From a virus, in the IMG/VR virus record IMGVR_UViG_3300029384_000086, positions 1-5,898 of that record: a DNA stretch of 5,898 bases, one strand, 5' to 3'. Below the pieces are notes generated by a model. It searched no databases. It saw only the letters and a list, made by a program, of their open reading frames with translations, and was not told the DNA's origin. The stretch's first letter is position 1, and each line of letters begins with the position of its first letter. Positions 2,055 to 5,898 of the stretch are shown here, one piece after another. Made by a program: the position numbers and the translations under genes.

Positions 2055-3074
2055 ATGAGTTGTTACAAGCCATTAATAAGGCTGTACAACCCGGATGATA
2101 GAGAACAGAGCGGACGGGTGTACTCACTCGCCCGCTTTTCTCAGCTAAGCGGGAAACAGCTAAAATATGAAGATTTGATGTATAATCCGAAAGTTATGTT
2201 AATACCATGCGGACAATGCATCGGATGCAGAATCAGGCAACGAGAGGACTGGACAACACGAATCGAGCTAGAAGCAAGAAATTACCCAAAAGAACAGGTA
2301 TGGTTTATCACACTAACTTATGATGACGACCATGTACCAGGCATGATAATAAAAACAGGTGAAATCATGCGAAAAGTACAATACACGTGGAAGCCGGGAG
2401 AGAAGCGTCCAGAAAGCGTCCAAATTCTAATGTATGAAGATATTCAAAAGTTCTTAAAACGTCTCAGAAAGGCTTACAGGGGCAAATTACGCTATTTTGT
2501 AGCGGGTGAATACGGAGAGCAAACGGCAAGGCCACACTATCACATGATACTATACGGTTGGGAACCGACAGACTTAGAAAATCTATACAAAATCCATCAC
2601 AACGGGTACTACAACAGCAAATGGCTAGCAGATCTGTGGGGAATGGGTCAGATACAGATAGCACAAGCAGTTCCAGAGACCTACAGATATGTTGCGGGAT
2701 ACGTTACAAAAAAAATGTACGAACTAGACGGAAAGAAAGCCAATGCATACTACGAGTTAGGGCAAACAAAACCTTTTGCTTGCATGAGCTTAAAGCCAGG
2801 ACTCGGAGACCAATATTACCAAGAACACAAAGAAGAGATATGGAGACAGGGATACATTCAATGCACCAACGGAAAACAAGCGCAGATTCCAAGATACTAC
2901 GAAAAGCAAATGGAAGCAGAAAACCCACAAAGATTGTGGAGAGTCAAACAGAACCGGCAGAAAAACGCAATCGAACAGAAGCGCCTACAGCTAGAGAACC
3001 AGGACTATAAGACAGTCCTAGAAACAAAAGAACGTGTCACCAAAAAACAAACGAAGAAGCGTGGAATTCTATAA
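2055..3074 (+). CDS. VP4: Replication initiation protein VP4, a rolling-circle HUH endonuclease (339 aa).
   Basis: Conserved gokushovirus VP4 motifs: Cys cluster PCGQCIGCR, RCR motif 1 FITLTY, motif 2 RPHYHMILYG (HuH), motif 3 YVAGYVTKK (catalytic Tyr). SD AGGTGA lies about 10 nt upstream of the ATG. Confidence 0.9.
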   Translation: MSCYKPLIRLYNPDDREQSGRVYSLARFSQLSGKQLKYEDLMYNPKVMLIPCGQCIGCRIRQREDWTTRIELEARNYPKEQVWFITLTYDDDHVPGMIIKTGEIMRKVQYTWKPGEKRPESVQILMYEDIQKFLKRLRKAYRGKLRYFVAGEYGEQTARPHYHMILYGWEPTDLENLYKIHHNGYYNSKWLADLWGMGQIQIAQAVPETYRYVAGYVTKKMYELDGKKANAYYELGQTKPFACMSLKPGLGDQYYQEHKEEIWRQGYIQCTNGKQAQIPRYYEKQMEAENPQRLWRVKQNRQKNAIEQKRLQLENQDYKTVLETKERVTKKQTKKRGIL

Positions 3075-3086
3075 TTGGTGTCACCT

Positions 3087-3123
3087 AGCCCAGTACCTAT
3101 CAAGTAGAGTACTGGGCTTTATT
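3087..3123 (+). terminator. Terminator-like hairpin after VP4: AGCCCAGTAC / GTACTGGGCT (10-bp perfect stem, 12-nt loop with inner CTA/TAG pairing) followed by TTATT.
   Basis: The inverted repeat was read directly. It begins 13 nt after the VP4 stop and is followed by a T-rich tract that runs into the iteron block. Confidence 0.5.
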
Positions 3124-3166
3124 AGTCTAAATTAGTCTAATCGATTAGTCTAAATTAGTCTAATCG
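3121..3166 (+). repeat. Four direct copies of ATTAGTCTAA, arranged as a perfect tandem duplication of the 23-bp unit ATTAGTCTAAATTAGTCTAATCG. Each 10-mer is itself a near-palindrome (TTAG-T-CTAA).
   Basis: Copies at 3121-3130, 3131-3140, 3144-3153 and 3154-3163. The 23-mer units are 3121-3143 and 3144-3166. Confidence 0.85.
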
Positions 3167-3220
3167 CGCACACACGTACGCGCGGAAATGCACGCGCACG
3201 CGTGCGCACGTATTATAATA
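3165..3220 (+). promoter_or_regulatory. GC-rich palindrome island abutting an AT-rich tract; candidate (+)-strand replication origin or Rep recognition region.
   Basis: Hairpin CGCGC-(acacacgtac)-GCGCG at 3165-3184. Perfect 14-bp palindrome GCGCACGCGTGCGC at 3194-3207. Motifs GCGCAC (x3) and CACGTA (x2). Immediately followed by TATTATAATATAAC (3211-3224). This is about 70% GC inside an AT-rich genome. Confidence 0.45.
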
Positions 3221-3248
3221 TAACTTGTTGTAGTCGTAGTAGTAGGGT

Positions 3249-3415
3249 ATGTTGAAAAGTTGAAAACTATAATTTTAAAACGTTAGAGCGTTAAAATAAG
3301 CAAAAAACAATGTTGAAAACTTTGTTGAAAACTTGTTGAAATGTTGAAACACTCTGTTGTGCTAAAGTTTAACAATGTTGAAATGTTGAAAACTATGTTG
3401 AAAATGTTGAAAACT
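3249..3415 (+). repeat. Array of 10 direct repeats, core TTGAAA, mostly (A)TGTTGAAAA(C), in three clusters spaced 8-12 bp apart (iteron-like phased A-tracts).
   Basis: TTGAAA cores start at 3252, 3260, 3313, 3325, 3336, 3344, 3378, 3386, 3398 and 3406. No ORF is possible because stops occur in all frames. Confidence 0.85.
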
Positions 3416-3450
3416 CAAATAGAAGCAGTCCGGAATCGAACGGGAAAGTC

Positions 3451-3501
3451 TCGGCCGCGCTTCGCTGGAAGTTGCGCCGCGTAGCGCGCAACGGCGGCCA
3501 T
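3451..3501 (+). other. GC-rich compound hairpin: outer stem GGCCGC/GCGGCC (3453-3458 pairs with 3494-3499) enclosing inner stem GTTGCGC/GCGCAAC (3471-3477 pairs with 3486-3492). Candidate complementary-strand origin or structured ssDNA signal.
   Basis: Inverted repeats were read directly. The element sits about 30-75 nt upstream of the consensus promoter in the intergenic region. Confidence 0.45.
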
Positions 3502-3503
3502 CT

Positions 3504-3562
3504 AATGAAAAATTCTGCAGAAGACTTGACAATTGTAAAGAAATGTGGTACAATAGAGTCAG
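3504..3562 (+). promoter_or_regulatory. Consensus sigma70-type promoter with an A-rich UP-like tract (AATGAAAAATT), -35 TTGACA (3526-3531), a 17-bp spacer, and an extended -10 TGgTACAAT (3546-3554). Predicted TSS is near 3561.
   Basis: Exact TTGACA, a 17-nt spacer (counted) and TACAAT preceded by TGg. The 8-bp palindrome ACAATTGT overlaps the -35/spacer and could be an operator. Confidence 0.7.
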
Positions 3563-3582
3563 AAAGAGAGGTAAGCAATATT

Positions 3583-3759
3583 ATGTACGAATACACCGAA
3601 AATAAAAAGGTAAAATGGTACAAGTCGCCCATTGACAACAGCATAAGGTTCCCTTATACTTACAACAAGAAGATGAAGTGTTGGGATAACCGGACATGCC
3701 AACTGTCAAGACAAAGAATCCACCAGCTAGAAAAAGAAAACAAAATAATGTGGATGTAA
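3583..3759 (+). CDS. Hypothetical small protein (58 aa), first ORF downstream of the consensus promoter.
   Basis: The ATG at 3583 is preceded by GAGAGG (about 9 nt upstream) and lies 20-25 nt downstream of the predicted TSS. The longer 3472 start in the track lies upstream of the promoter, inside the GC hairpin. I recognise no similarity. Confidence 0.4.
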   Translation: MYEYTENKKVKWYKSPIDNSIRFPYTYNKKMKCWDNRTCQLSRQRIHQLEKENKIMWM

Positions 3760-3774
3760 CGAAAGGAAACCAAC

Positions 3775-4158
3775 ATGAAAGATATTCTATACGTCAAAGC
3801 AGACCACGGACATCTAAGCGAGCACTTTAAAGCAAAAGAGTTCCAGTGCAAAGACAAAACAGAAGGACTGCTAATAGCAAAAGAACTTCTGGAGATACTG
3901 GAAAAAATCCGAAACCACTTCAACGCACCAGTCATCATCAACAGCGGATACCGTACGCCGAGCTGGAATGCAAAAGTAAACGGAGCATCAAACAGCTACC
4001 ACTGCAAAGGGATGGCGGCAGATATCGTAGTAAAAGGACACAGCAGCAGAGAAGTCGCAAAATACGCGAATAGCATCATGGAGCAAGGCGGCGTAATCAA
4101 ATACACGAATTTCACACACGTTGATGTGCGCGAAGAGCGATACAGAAAGGGGGTGTAG
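3775..4158 (+). CDS. Peptidase_M15_3 family zinc D-Ala-D-Ala carboxypeptidase-like peptidoglycan hydrolase (127 aa); putative lysis enzyme.
   Basis: Family signature H…EF.C.D…, INSGYRTPSWNAKVNGASNSYHCKGMAADI, FTHVDVR, with H/D/H zinc ligands. SD AAAGGAAA lies about 7 nt upstream. No signal peptide or TM segment. Confidence 0.85.
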   Translation: MKDILYVKADHGHLSEHFKAKEFQCKDKTEGLLIAKELLEILEKIRNHFNAPVIINSGYRTPSWNAKVNGASNSYHCKGMAADIVVKGHSSREVAKYANSIMEQGGVIKYTNFTHVDVREERYRKGV

Positions 4159-4613: not shown

Positions 4614-4856
4614 ATGATTCATGGATACTATGGCATCTACGACAGCGTAGCAAAATGTTACTGCTACATCGGAGAAAGCAAGAGCAACGAAACCTTTGCA
4701 CGAATGTGCAATATCATGGCAAAGGACGAGAAGACGTTCCTGGGCCAGTCGCCCGAAGACTACAAGGGCTACCATGTCGCAAACTTCAACGATGAAACCG
4801 GCAGCTTCGACAGCATCGAGCCGGACAAGGTCTGGGAGGGCAAGCCGCATGAATAA
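4614..4856 (+). CDS. VP5: VP5-like small protein (80 aa), gokushovirus DNA-binding/packaging protein family.
   Basis: SD AAGGAG lies 9 nt upstream. The pattern …YGIYDSVAK.Y…FARM…SPEDYKGYHVANFNDETGSF… matches the conserved PEDY/F…G.FD..TG signature of gokushovirus VP5 proteins as I recall it. Its position immediately upstream of VP3-VP1 is canonical. Confidence 0.7.
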   Translation: MIHGYYGIYDSVAKCYCYIGESKSNETFARMCNIMAKDEKTFLGQSPEDYKGYHVANFNDETGSFDSIEPDKVWEGKPHE

Positions 4857-5262
4857 ACGATACGAGGAAGGGCGAAAGCCCTTCTTTTCAGATCCGGGCG
4901 AAAAAATGCGTAAACAGTACGTCTTGGGTAAGGACGAAAAAGGCAACAAAAAACTGATGGAGAAGGAGCCAATCGACATTCAAGCCGAAATTGAAAGCTA
5001 CGCAGACGAATGCGACATCAAAAATATTGTCCGCAGAGCAAGCTTTGATCCTCAATTCGCAAAAAGTCTGGTAGACAGCGCAGAAACGGACGAAATCGTA
5101 GATATCACCGAATGGCCGACAAACATTCACGAATATAAGGCCATGATGGCAACGGCACAAGCTGCAGCAAGAGAAATCCAACGAATCCAGAAAAAAGTTG
5201 CAGAAGTACCTGTAGAAGTACCTGTAAAAAAGGAGAAGAACAAGAACAATGAACCGGAATAA
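4849..5262 (+). CDS. VP3: VP3-like internal scaffolding protein (137 aa).
   Basis: The ATG at 4849 is preceded by GGGAGGG (8 nt) and overlaps the VP5 stop (ATGAATAA). Acidic, helical protein of VP3-like size, placed immediately upstream of VP1 as in gokushoviruses. The longer 4696 start in the track would overlap VP5 and has no RBS. Confidence 0.6.
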   Translation: MNKRYEEGRKPFFSDPGEKMRKQYVLGKDEKGNKKLMEKEPIDIQAEIESYADECDIKNIVRRASFDPQFAKSLVDSAETDEIVDITEWPTNIHEYKAMMATAQAAAREIQRIQKKVAEVPVEVPVKKEKNKNNEPE

Positions 5263-5898
5263 TGAGCGGCACTTCAATCAAGTACCAGAAACACACGTCA
5301 GCCGAACACGCTTCAATCGAGACCAAACTATTCTCACAACATTCGATGCGGGAAAACTTATCCCATTTTACGTTGATGAGGTTCTTCCGGGCGACACTTT
5401 CAGCGTGGACACGGCGGCAATCATCCGAATGACAACGCCGAAATATCCAGTAATGGACGATGCATATATCGACATCTATTACTTCTATTGTCCGAACAAA
5501 ATTATTTGGGAAAACTTCAAGCGATTCATGGGAGAAGCAGACGAAATCCCGTGGATGCCGGAAAAAACATATCGAGTACCCAAAATAATCGTAGAAGGAA
5601 ATTCGAGTGATGAAAACAAGAGAGGGCCAAAAGAAGGAAGCATCCTCGACTACATGGGAATACCGACAAAGGTAGAAGGAAGAATCGAGATCAACGCGCT
5701 ACCGGTCAGAGCATATGTAAAAATTTGGAACGAATATTTTCGAGACCAAAATGTAGACAATCCGGCGGTATTCTTAACGGACGATGATGACGCAGATTAC
5801 TACGACAGAGGCCCAGACGAACAGGAACTCTTAATGAACGCAAGACTGGGAGGGCAATGCTTACCGGTAAATAAATTCCACGACTACTTCACAAGTTG
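5249..5898 (+). CDS. VP1: Major capsid protein VP1, N-terminal part (MNRNNERHFNQVPETHVSRTRFNRDQ…). It is open to the window end and continues at position 1.
   Basis: The ATG at 5249 follows AAGGAG. By hand translation the frame is continuous through 5898 and into 1..1148. Confidence 0.88.
   Translation, partial: MNRNNERHFNQVPETHVSRTRFNRDQTILTTFDAGKLIPFYVDEVLPGDTFSVDTAAIIRMTTPKYPVMDDAYIDIYYFYCPNKIIWENFKRFMGEADEIPWMPEKTYRVPKIIVEGNSSDENKRGPKEGSILDYMGIPTKVEGRIEINALPVRAYVKIWNEYFRDQNVDNPAVFLTDDDDADYYDRGPDEQELLMNARLGGQCLPVNKFHDYFTS
5781..5898. repeat. Terminal redundancy: 118 bp identical to positions 1-118. This is a circular-genome assembly overlap; the unit genome is 5,780 bp.
   Basis: Direct string identity, 5781-5898 = 1-118, checked at both ends. 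Confidence 0.95.

Follow-up and report, generated by a model that had tools for sequence, protein, structure and literature searches.

A putative oriC-type, DnaA-dependent origin module in the non-coding region of a gokushovirus genome

Introduction

Gokushoviruses are among the most abundant single-stranded DNA (ssDNA) phages of animal guts and other environments; hardly any of them have a known replication origin, host, or basis of long-term persistence. The question of how such a genome is replicated is raised by IMG/VR virus record IMGVR_UViG_3300029384_000086 (5,898 nt, the whole stretch analyzed here and hereafter termed the window), in which bases 1–118 are identical to bases 5781–5898, so that the window is a circular gokushovirus genome of ~5780 nt. 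Its single large non-coding region (3075–3582) extends from the stop codon of the gene for the replication protein (Rep) VP4 to the first open reading frame (ORF) past a near-consensus promoter. The original prediction, made from the sequence of the window alone, distinguished three modules in this region, i.e., (i) a fourfold tandem repeat, (ii) a GC-rich palindrome block beside an AT tract, and (iii) an array of ten short repeats, and read them jointly as a rolling-circle origin with binding sites for VP4. Does the region serve Rep, or does it recruit another initiator?

Based on sequence comparison, we propose that positions 3211–3413 constitute an oriC-type, DnaA-dependent origin module acting on the double-stranded replicative form, rather than a set of Rep iterons, and we assign this reading a probability of about 0.6. 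The narrower claim, that the cassette is a DnaA-binding element resembling the basal unwinding system (BUS) of bacterial chromosomes, is very probably correct. The cassette has a defined anatomy, is conserved among phages, occurs independently of orientation, and is identical in layout to bacterial oriC units.

Anatomy of the cassette

The AT tract, a run of triplets, and ten (T)GTTGAAA repeats form a single conserved cassette of ~200 bp, composed of the following elements.

3211–3224, + strand: AT-rich tract TATTATAATATAAC, candidate DNA-unwinding element, immediately 5' of the triplets and AT-rich in all cassettes
3225–3245, + strand: triplet run TTG TTG TAG TCG TAG TAG TAG between the AT tract and the first box, DnaA-trio-like at 3231–3245
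3246–3249, + strand: 4-nt spacer GGTA (family consensus GGGC), corresponding to the GC-rich gap of the BUS
3250–3266, + strand: tandem co-oriented DnaA-box-like pair TGTTGAAA + AGTTGAAAA (family consensus TGTGGAAA + AGTTGAAAA)
3267–3310, + strand: AT-rich spacer containing AACGTTAGAGCGTTAAAA, semi-conserved in an alignment of 117 cassettes
3311–3350, + strand: second cluster, four co-oriented TGTTGAAA(A/T/C) boxes starting at 3311, 3323, 3334, and 3342
3376–3413, + strand: third cluster, four co-oriented TGTTGAAA(A) boxes starting at 3376, 3384, 3396, and 3405

The core of the window thus reads TATTATAATATAAC-TTGTTG-TAGTCGTAGTAGTAG-GGTA-TGTTGAAA-AGTTGAAAA, for which the family consensus from the gap onward is GGGC-TGTGGAAA-AGTTGAAAA. 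The triplet run, which is the key to the interpretation, was overlooked in the original prediction. Its fourth triplet is variable among phages (TCG, TAG, CCG, GAG, or ACG), and the spacer that follows the run is 4 nt long in 68 cassettes and 3 nt long in 15.

The ten repeats with 8–12 bp phasing described at the outset are present. GTTGAAA occurs ten times, exclusively on the + strand and entirely within 3251–3412, against a chance expectation of 1.1, and none of 200 shuffles reached this number; the boxes are grouped into three clusters of two, four, and four, with a start-to-start spacing of 8–12 nt within the clusters. A logo of 1400 phage boxes reads T G T [T 0.87 / G 0.13] G A A A [A/G]; of this 9-mer, 7/9 positions agree with TGTGGATAA, and its first T was not imposed by the search. 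At homologous positions, members of the phage family have TGTTGAAA, TGTGGAAA, TGTGGAAAA, or perfect TGTGGATAA, and relatives carry TGTGGAAA or TGTGGATAA at the positions homologous to the third cluster. The motif AACGTTAGAGCGTTAAAA (in relatives, AACGTTAGAACGTTAAAA), located between the first and second box clusters, could be the site of another host factor. Additionally, the last box in L004, L008, L010, and L011 is followed by an inverted box, TGTTGAAAACTCAAGTTTTCCACA, which on ssDNA could fold as a hairpin containing a double-stranded DnaA box and which is absent from the window.

Conservation and orientation among microviruses

Relatives were gathered in four ways, i.e., by blastn against GenBank phages (L001–L004), by a motif scan of IMG/VR (L005–L124), by a VP4-protein search, and by a scan for the central boxes only. 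The cassette is kept in >160 microvirus contigs, and its nucleotide identity is 72–85% over 130–210 nt even where the proteins VP4 and VP1 are 35% and 42% identical, respectively. Neutral non-coding DNA would be unrecognizable at the distance implied by 35% identity in VP4, and the cassette is thus considered to be under selection. Among the 80 relatives retrieved through VP4, a simple pattern recovered the cassette in 66 (61 in the same orientation, five reversed). The remaining 14 were mostly contigs ending just after VP4; of the three longer ones inspected, L301 and L323 carry slight variants, bringing the total to 68/80, and L296 has an unrelated insertion in place of the cassette. When genomes were retrieved by the boxes only, the run (T/A)ACTTGTTGTAG(xAG)n was still present in all but one or two.

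The orientation of the cassette relative to the genes is not fixed. Cassette and VP1 share a strand in 106 contigs and are found on opposite strands in 41, and an ORF-based count gave 84 versus 22, such that ~20–28% of the cassettes are inverted. In close pairs such as L005/L009, the inversion breakpoints are located between the GC tracts and the AT tract at one end and just past the last box at the other; the GC tracts, the hairpin behind VP4, and the GC element on the promoter side are left in place. The occurrence of both orientations fits a function on duplex DNA and is not what would be expected of a strand-specific Rep nick site.

Correspondence with the basal unwinding system of oriC

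In the BUS, DnaA boxes in co-oriented tandem are separated by ≤16 nt, ~4 nt of which form a GC-rich gap, from at least three DnaA-trios (3'-NAN-5', consensus 3'-GAT-5'), onto which DnaA-ATP oligomerizes, whereupon the adjacent AT-rich DNA is opened (PMC8287927, PMC6669920, PMC10721633). The BUS units in Table S1 of PMC8287927 are written 3'→5'; the trio strand of B. subtilis reads, 5'→3', ...TAGTAGAAGTAATAGTAG-GGCC-TGTGGATT-TGTGGATAA, with the gap appearing as CCGG in the 3'→5' notation (PMC8287927). The 5'-TAG-3' triplet of the window is therefore the published 3'-GAT-5' trio.

By published criteria, a DnaA box has ≤2 mismatches to TTATCCACA or to a species-specific motif, and a co-oriented second tandem box may have ≤4. 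In the window, TGTTGAAAA at 3250–3258 has two mismatches to TGTGGATAA and AGTTGAAAA at 3258–3266 has three, or zero and one, respectively, when compared with TGTTGAAAA, which is itself a species-specific motif in DoriC (listed reversed, AAAAGTTGT) and is used in the oriC of L225; TTTTCAACA is likewise listed as a species-specific DnaA box in DoriC-derived data. The spacer, measured from the better box to the first trio with the ~4-nt GC-rich gap included, may be up to 16 nt and is usually 10–13 nt; here, GGTA provides a 4-nt gap, and 12 nt separate the distal box from the trios. TAG TAG TAG (3237–3245) supplies the minimum number of trios, with a further TAG (3231–3233) beyond the degenerate TCG, and the AT-rich element expected past the trios is TATTATAATATAAC (3211–3224). 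The strand and side of the trios are those of B. subtilis, S. aureus, D. radiodurans, and at least 120 bacterial loci. Chromosomal BUS units are typically located in the dnaA–dnaN region, whereas this element lies in a phage genome between the Rep gene and the late promoter, and it is for this reason termed BUS-like and not a chromosomal oriC.

One of the closest known counterparts, comprising DnaA-boxes 6 and 7, GC gap, and trios of B. subtilis incC (Richardson 2016/2019; Pelliciari 2021, PMC8287927), resembles the window in its elements and in their order, strand, and spacing. In both, an 8-mer box abuts a co-oriented 9-mer box and the fourth triplet is degenerate. The window differs in being a 5.8-kb ssDNA phage genome, with the element beside an HUH Rep gene and not between dnaA and dnaN, in its box variant TGTTGAAAA, in the uniform direction of its ten boxes, and in the conserved TTGTTG and ACTTG 5' of the trios, which have no counterpart in the BUS.

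To locate the same layout elsewhere, we used a degenerate pattern, TAGTAGTAGN{3,5}TGTKGAWWNKTKGAWAA, written to accommodate the phage cassette as well as canonical boxes. The window contains one match, at 3237–3266, and 200 shuffles contain none. The pattern carries ~42 bits of information by our own estimate, so that ~0.2 chance matches are expected in a genome collection of 596 Gb; the scan of this collection returned at least 120 matches, and all those listed are on bacterial contigs, from many phyla. Among the matches listed, a dnaN-family and/or dnaA-family gene flanks 101 of 120. In the initial clustering of these matches, a dnaN-family gene is found in 89, starting at a median of 76 nt from the AT/triplet side, and a dnaA-family gene in 84, at a median of 192 nt past the boxes; one representative of each family was confirmed by Pfam. 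AT-rich DNA occupies the triplet side in the bacterial units (at least 120) as well. With 101 of the 120 listed matches adjoining dnaA or dnaN, the pattern is a specific signature of oriC, and it is carried by the phage.

The bacterial units resemble the phage cassette in several further details. Their gaps are GGGC, GGCC, and similar sequences, and the degenerate fourth triplet is common to bacteria and phages (TAGTCG-, TAGCCG-, and TAGACG-TAGTAGTAG). The bacterial loci L146, L159, L173, L211, and L235 carry TAGTCGTAGTAGTAG itself, and Clostridium oriCs carry TGTTGATA-TGTTGATAA (L143, L149, L168, L199, and L222). Boxes of the GTTGAAA variant also occur in oriCs of the Oscillospiraceae/Ruminococcus type. 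The Oscillospiraceae metagenome-assembled genome L225 has TAGTAGTAG-GGGC-TGTTGAAA-TGTTGAAAA and five more co-oriented GTTGAAA within 190 nt, with none elsewhere on that strand of the 8-kb locus, i.e., a one-way array like that of the window, and L215 (Ruthenibacterium) and L162 (Ruminococcus) have TGTGGAAA-TGTTGAAAA. The likeness is confined to motifs and layout; the sequence between the motifs is unalignable, and in bacteria dnaN and dnaA adjoin the site. An origin of the cassette from captured host DNA or from a related plasmid was rejected, given the absence of any meaningful plasmid match and the resemblance to bacterial oriCs at the motif level only. The occurrence of the TGTTGAAAA variant in the oriCs of such Clostridia points to a host of the Oscillospiraceae/Ruminococcaceae type as likely, and the promoters and strong Shine–Dalgarno sites of the phage fit a Firmicute host. 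Before the match to the BUS was recognized, a dif/Xer site was considered in GCGCACGTATTATAATATAAC, which agrees with E. coli dif at 15/28 positions (manual count) and has a poor XerD arm; it was dropped on the BUS match. In a full-text literature search of incomplete coverage, no paper was found in which DnaA boxes or DnaA-trios are connected with Microviridae or gokushoviruses.

Similar modules in other viruses

Restricting the pattern to GATAA-type boxes gave ten contigs in IMG/VR. One of these, L380, is a 4.6-kb microvirus whose VP1 and VP4 are 27% and 33% identical to those of the window. Its intergenic region (2930–3320) contains AT-rich DNA followed by TAGTAGTAGTAG-GGGG-TGTTGATA-TGTTGATAA, together with two arrays of canonical TGTGGATAA and TGTTGATAA boxes, and the BUS match (3232–3261) lies on the minus strand, opposite to its genes. 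As judged from these motifs, a second microvirus lineage has the same architecture with unmistakable DnaA boxes, which is hard to reconcile with the repeats of the window being Rep iterons. The other nine contigs, 12–109 kb in length, carry a BUS and box arrays. In L245–L253, L378, and L379 (IMG/VR, 12–109 kb), canonical units of TAGTAGTAG, gap, and TGTGGATA-TGTGGATAA are accompanied by further DnaA-box arrays. Contamination by host oriC was rejected as the origin of the canonical matches in IMG/VR, as neither dnaA nor dnaN is present within the fetched flanks. BUS modules may thus be more widespread in phages or phage-plasmids, and these contigs hint that borrowing the unwinding system of the host is a wider viral strategy.

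Elements flanking the cassette

Upstream of the cassette, the non-coding region contains the following elements.

3077–3118, + strand: invariant GGTGTCA, then a hairpin (inverted repeat; stem 3087–3096/3109–3118, loop CTATCAAGTAGA at 3097–3108)
3121–3166, + strand: four ATTAGTCTAA in a perfect 2 × 23-nt tandem, a lineage-private amplification in a hypervariable spacer
3165–3184 (20 nt) and 3188–3213 (26 nt), no strand assigned: two alternating purine/pyrimidine (CG/CA)n tracts with GAA between them, which could form Z-DNA or a cruciform

The tandem repeat is where the original prediction placed it. ATTAGTCTAAATTAGTCTAATCG occurs twice in perfect tandem at 3121–3166 and yields four TTAGTCTAA, where shuffles give an expectation of 1.2 with one mismatch allowed. 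Its proposed role as an iteron of Rep did not survive comparison with relatives. Among those collected, TTAGTCTAA is found once in L022 and, apart from the four copies in the window, nowhere else; the doubled unit is found in no other microvirus contig of IMG/VR and in no GenBank phage, and there is no close relative of the window among GenBank phages. In relatives whose VP4 is 94% identical, one ATTATTCTAATCG occupies the place of the four ATTAGTCTAA of the window, and L267 shows an independent triple amplification of ATTATTCTA at the same spot. These two observations identify the spot as a slippage-prone spacer with recently amplified copies in the window; in light of this comparison, the ATTAGTCTAA repeats are a recent, private tandem amplification of one ATTATTCTAATCG. 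The array is thus missing from all relatives, even those closest in VP4, an outcome that the original prediction had itself named as evidence against function. A partial tandem duplication of the distal box cluster with adjoining GC sequence is seen in L117 and L118, and the whole non-coding region is prone to local amplification.

The GC-rich palindrome block beside the AT tract is also present; 3165–3210 (~46 nt) is 72% G+C by manual count, holds CGCGC...GCGCG and the 14-nt palindrome GCGCACGCGTGCGC, and adjoins TATTATAATATAAC. However, its hairpins fold, as ssDNA, like shuffled sequence (fold-energy z = 0.16 against dinucleotide shuffles). They are therefore regarded as a by-product of composition, and a selected ssDNA hairpin was rejected; the conserved property is purine/pyrimidine alternation. 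The two tracts at 3165–3184 and 3188–3213 are the only alternating runs of ≥12 nt in the genome, the longest run in shuffled genomes averaging 12.7 nt with a maximum of 19. Comparison of 125 relatives, as the original prediction had suggested for GC palindromes preceding the AT tract, revealed alternating tracts of ≥14 nt on the AT-rich side in 85 and on the box side in 10, whereas 32 have none; the arrangement is thus common but not universal. The GC block keeps its VP4-side position when the cassette is inverted, and the alternating tracts are an accessory element.

The hairpin behind VP4 is supported by covariation. Across 20 distinct relatives, 7/13 pairs change on both sides, 87% of the cells are paired, and none of 500 shuffles equals this. 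The loop CTATCAAG (3097–3104) and the upstream GTGTC are invariant, and three classes of co-varying stem occur. A weak T-run that is not conserved follows the stem, so that the hairpin may have a role beyond termination. Read on the minus strand, the loop gives ACTTGATA, the phiX174 nick core, an 8-mer that is by itself at chance level. Both the conserved loop at 3097–3104 and the conserved ACTTGTTG just 5' of the triplets are candidate Rep nick sites.

The phiX174 origin is located inside the Rep gene, has no repeats, and does not need DnaA. It is a 30-nt site within gene A (CAACTTG/ATATTAATAAC...) in a member of the same virus family with a homologous type of Rep. The window shares with it AACTTG after the AT tract and the minus-strand ACTTGATA of the hairpin loop; however, the similarity is not significant. 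The resemblance of the AT tract to the core of the phiX174 origin amounts genome-wide to three 8-mer matches to the verified 30-nt viral-strand origin (CAACTTG/ATATTAATAACACTATAGACCAC), the number obtained with shuffles, none of them on the + strand inside 3121–3420.

Beyond the cassette, the window was annotated as follows; all its long ORFs are on the + strand.

2055–3074, + strand: gene of the Rep protein VP4 (Pfam REP_ORF2-G2P, E = 3.6e-17)
3421–3510, + strand: GC-rich element with conserved GGAAAGTC and lineage-specific stems, outside the invertible cassette
3526–3554, + strand: strong sigma-70-type promoter TTGACA-17-TACAAT with extended TG, 11/12 matches, kept in relatives
3775–4158, + strand: Peptidase_M15_3 gene (Pfam)
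4614–4856, + strand: Phage_ORF5/VP5 gene (Pfam)

By blastn, the window is nearest to GenBank entries for gut gokushoviruses sampled from the faeces of humans, pigs, and monkeys (~76–80% nucleotide identity). The cassette lies in a non-transcribed gap that ends at the promoter, ~110 nt past the last box. The promoter is directly followed by a small, conserved ORF (3583–3759, 58 aa) with no Pfam match and then by the Peptidase_M15_3 gene, which likely encodes a lysis enzyme and is an unusual accessory gene for a gokushovirus. The stems of the 3421–3510 element differ between lineages (GGCCGC...GCGGCC in the window, GTCATGC...GCATGAC in L004), and the element remains on the promoter side when the cassette is inverted; 3421–3525 was rejected as a strongly structured element, its folding (z = -0.8) being unexceptional. 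In the non-coding region, ARAGORN detected no tRNA and no Rfam family was found, the one sub-threshold match being to a microRNA (E = 0.81). Elsewhere, a perfect 12-nt tandem, AGAAGTACCTGT x2, lies at 5202–5226 within the gene upstream of VP1.

Proposed function and alternative explanations

It is probable that the host initiator DnaA, besides the phage Rep, opens the double-stranded form of the phage and that the AT tract is the place of duplex opening. In the proposed mechanism, DnaA-ATP of the host would occupy the box array on the replicative form and oligomerize from the proximal boxes (3250–3266) onto the TAG-triplet strand (3231–3245), thereby melting the AT tract (3211–3224) next to the triplets; the helicase-loading and priming machinery of the host (helicase, primase) would then enter at the opened tract. 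The outcome would be theta-type replication or maintenance of the replicative form, either independent of Rep or assisting it, or alternatively the supply of ssDNA and helicase to VP4, while rolling-circle replication by VP4 would still produce the progeny single strands. The recruitment of host DnaA by a mobile replicon through boxes beside an AT-rich region has parallels in the origins of pSC101, P1 oriR, F, and RK2 and in artificial mollicute oriC plasmids. Such origins are opened through iterons of the plasmid Rep and carry one to few DnaA boxes, and to our knowledge they have no trio run in BUS register; in contrast, the unwinding module of the host is complete in the window, where no gene for a theta-type initiator was seen.

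Several points weigh against a DnaA-dependent origin. Outside coding sequence, the cassette and the CTATCAAG hairpin are both absent from the classical gokushoviruses Chp2, phiMH2K, and SpV4, and the cassette is thus not required by the subfamily. The three contiguous canonical trios of the window are the published minimum, and TCG, TTG, and TTG do not conform to NAN; the BUS model does not account for ACTTGTTG, which is strongly conserved 5' of the trios; TGTTGAAAA deviates from the stringent consensus of E. coli at a position that is usually conserved; and the ten boxes all point in one direction, unlike those of many oriCs, although the boxes of L225 do likewise. Furthermore, the first set of phages was mostly retrieved through the triplet motif, which renders the conservation of the triplet bases in that set circular, a bias that retrieval by VP4 and by the boxes alone corrects in part, and the pattern used to scan bacterial genomes was drawn up with knowledge of the BUS.

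The explanation favored by the original prediction was a rolling-circle double-strand origin, in which GTTGAAA and/or ATTAGTCTAA are the iterons of VP4 and VP4 nicks in or beside the AT tract. The region lies directly 3' of the Rep gene, iterons, an AT tract, and hairpins are a common grammar of rolling-circle origins, and ACTTGTTG, conserved beyond what a BUS needs, has AACTTG in common with the phiX174 nick region. However, iterons are specific to their own Rep and normally co-vary with it, whereas GTTGAAA is unchanged across phages whose VP4 is 35% identical and is found in bacterial oriCs, where the same layout of box, gap, and triplets is the mark of the origin. ATTAGTCTAA is private to this genome and absent even at 94% VP4 identity. 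The likeness to the phiX origin does not exceed chance, ~20–28% of genomes have the cassette inverted with respect to the genes, and the distant microvirus L380 has canonical DnaA boxes in the same layout, all of which renders this explanation very unlikely. What stands of the original proposal is a conserved, cis-acting replication-control region with the AT tract as its probable opening site; the joint reading of three modules with Rep iterons, hairpin, and phiX-like nick site does not. It is also highly improbable that the repeats bind another factor, such as a phage protein or Spo0A, or that they act through intrinsic curvature as a packaging or host-factor signal. TGTTGAA is one base off the 0A box (TGTCGAA), and short A-runs every 8–12 nt could bend DNA; however, the variable position of the box is T or G and never the C that the 0A box requires, perfect TGTGGATAA occurs at homologous sites, and curvature leaves unexplained the register of triplets, gap, and boxes held in common with oriC.

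Two other explanations accept DnaA as the ligand. The array could be a sink or sensor, i.e., a datA-like trap that stalls chromosome initiation by titrating host DnaA or a DnaA-responsive switch of the neighboring promoter. Ten boxes multiplied by many copies of the replicative form would be a strong sink, clusters of DnaA boxes that do not fire are known in bacteria, and a strong promoter lies ~110 nt past the last box. For such a role, however, boxes alone would suffice, yet the triplets, the 4-nt gap, and the AT tract, which are the parts used in unwinding, are kept in exact register with the proximal pair; moreover, inversion shifts the boxes away from the promoter, and the cassette is retained nonetheless. 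A sink or sensor is therefore unlikely. Alternatively, the cassette could be the complementary-strand origin, at which ssDNA is converted to double-stranded DNA by a DnaA-dependent, ABC-type primosome assembled at a folded DnaA box. Phages with ssDNA need a signal of this kind and none is known for gokushoviruses; furthermore, L004, L008, and L010 end their array with the inverted box TGTTGAAAACTCAAGTTTTCCACA, a potential hairpin, as in the 'A site' of the R6K ABC primosome, where a hairpin presents a DnaA box on a single-stranded template. The ten boxes of the window, however, are all direct repeats with no inverted terminal box, so that none would be double-stranded in ssDNA, their layout is that of a BUS on duplex DNA, and a strand-specific signal should not tolerate inversion unless the packaged strand switches too. 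This explanation is quite unlikely.

Implications

An enterobacterial gokushovirus persists as a circular episome without integrating (PMC7062461), which makes an origin synchronized with the host plausible. We tentatively extend the proposal further, in a form that is possible but doubtful: many gut gokushoviruses, forming a large clade, and one or more unrelated lineages of microviruses would carry a complete origin module of the host type, functional in either orientation, and their replicative form would be a minichromosome fired by DnaA and replicated as an episome in time with the cell cycle of the host (integration-free persistence, or 'pseudolysogeny'), with rolling-circle replication by VP4 reserved for virions.

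If the cassette is a working DnaA origin, it would be the first concrete, testable cis-element for gokushovirus replication and an example of a virus carrying an entire bacterial BUS in place of a theta-type initiator of its own. The box variant would provide a sequence-based clue to the host, pointing to Oscillospiraceae/Ruminococcaceae, and the module would offer a mechanism for integration-free episomal carriage. The concept of the BUS would moreover reach beyond chromosomes to mobile elements, with >160 natural variants showing what DnaA tolerates in boxes, gap, and trios.

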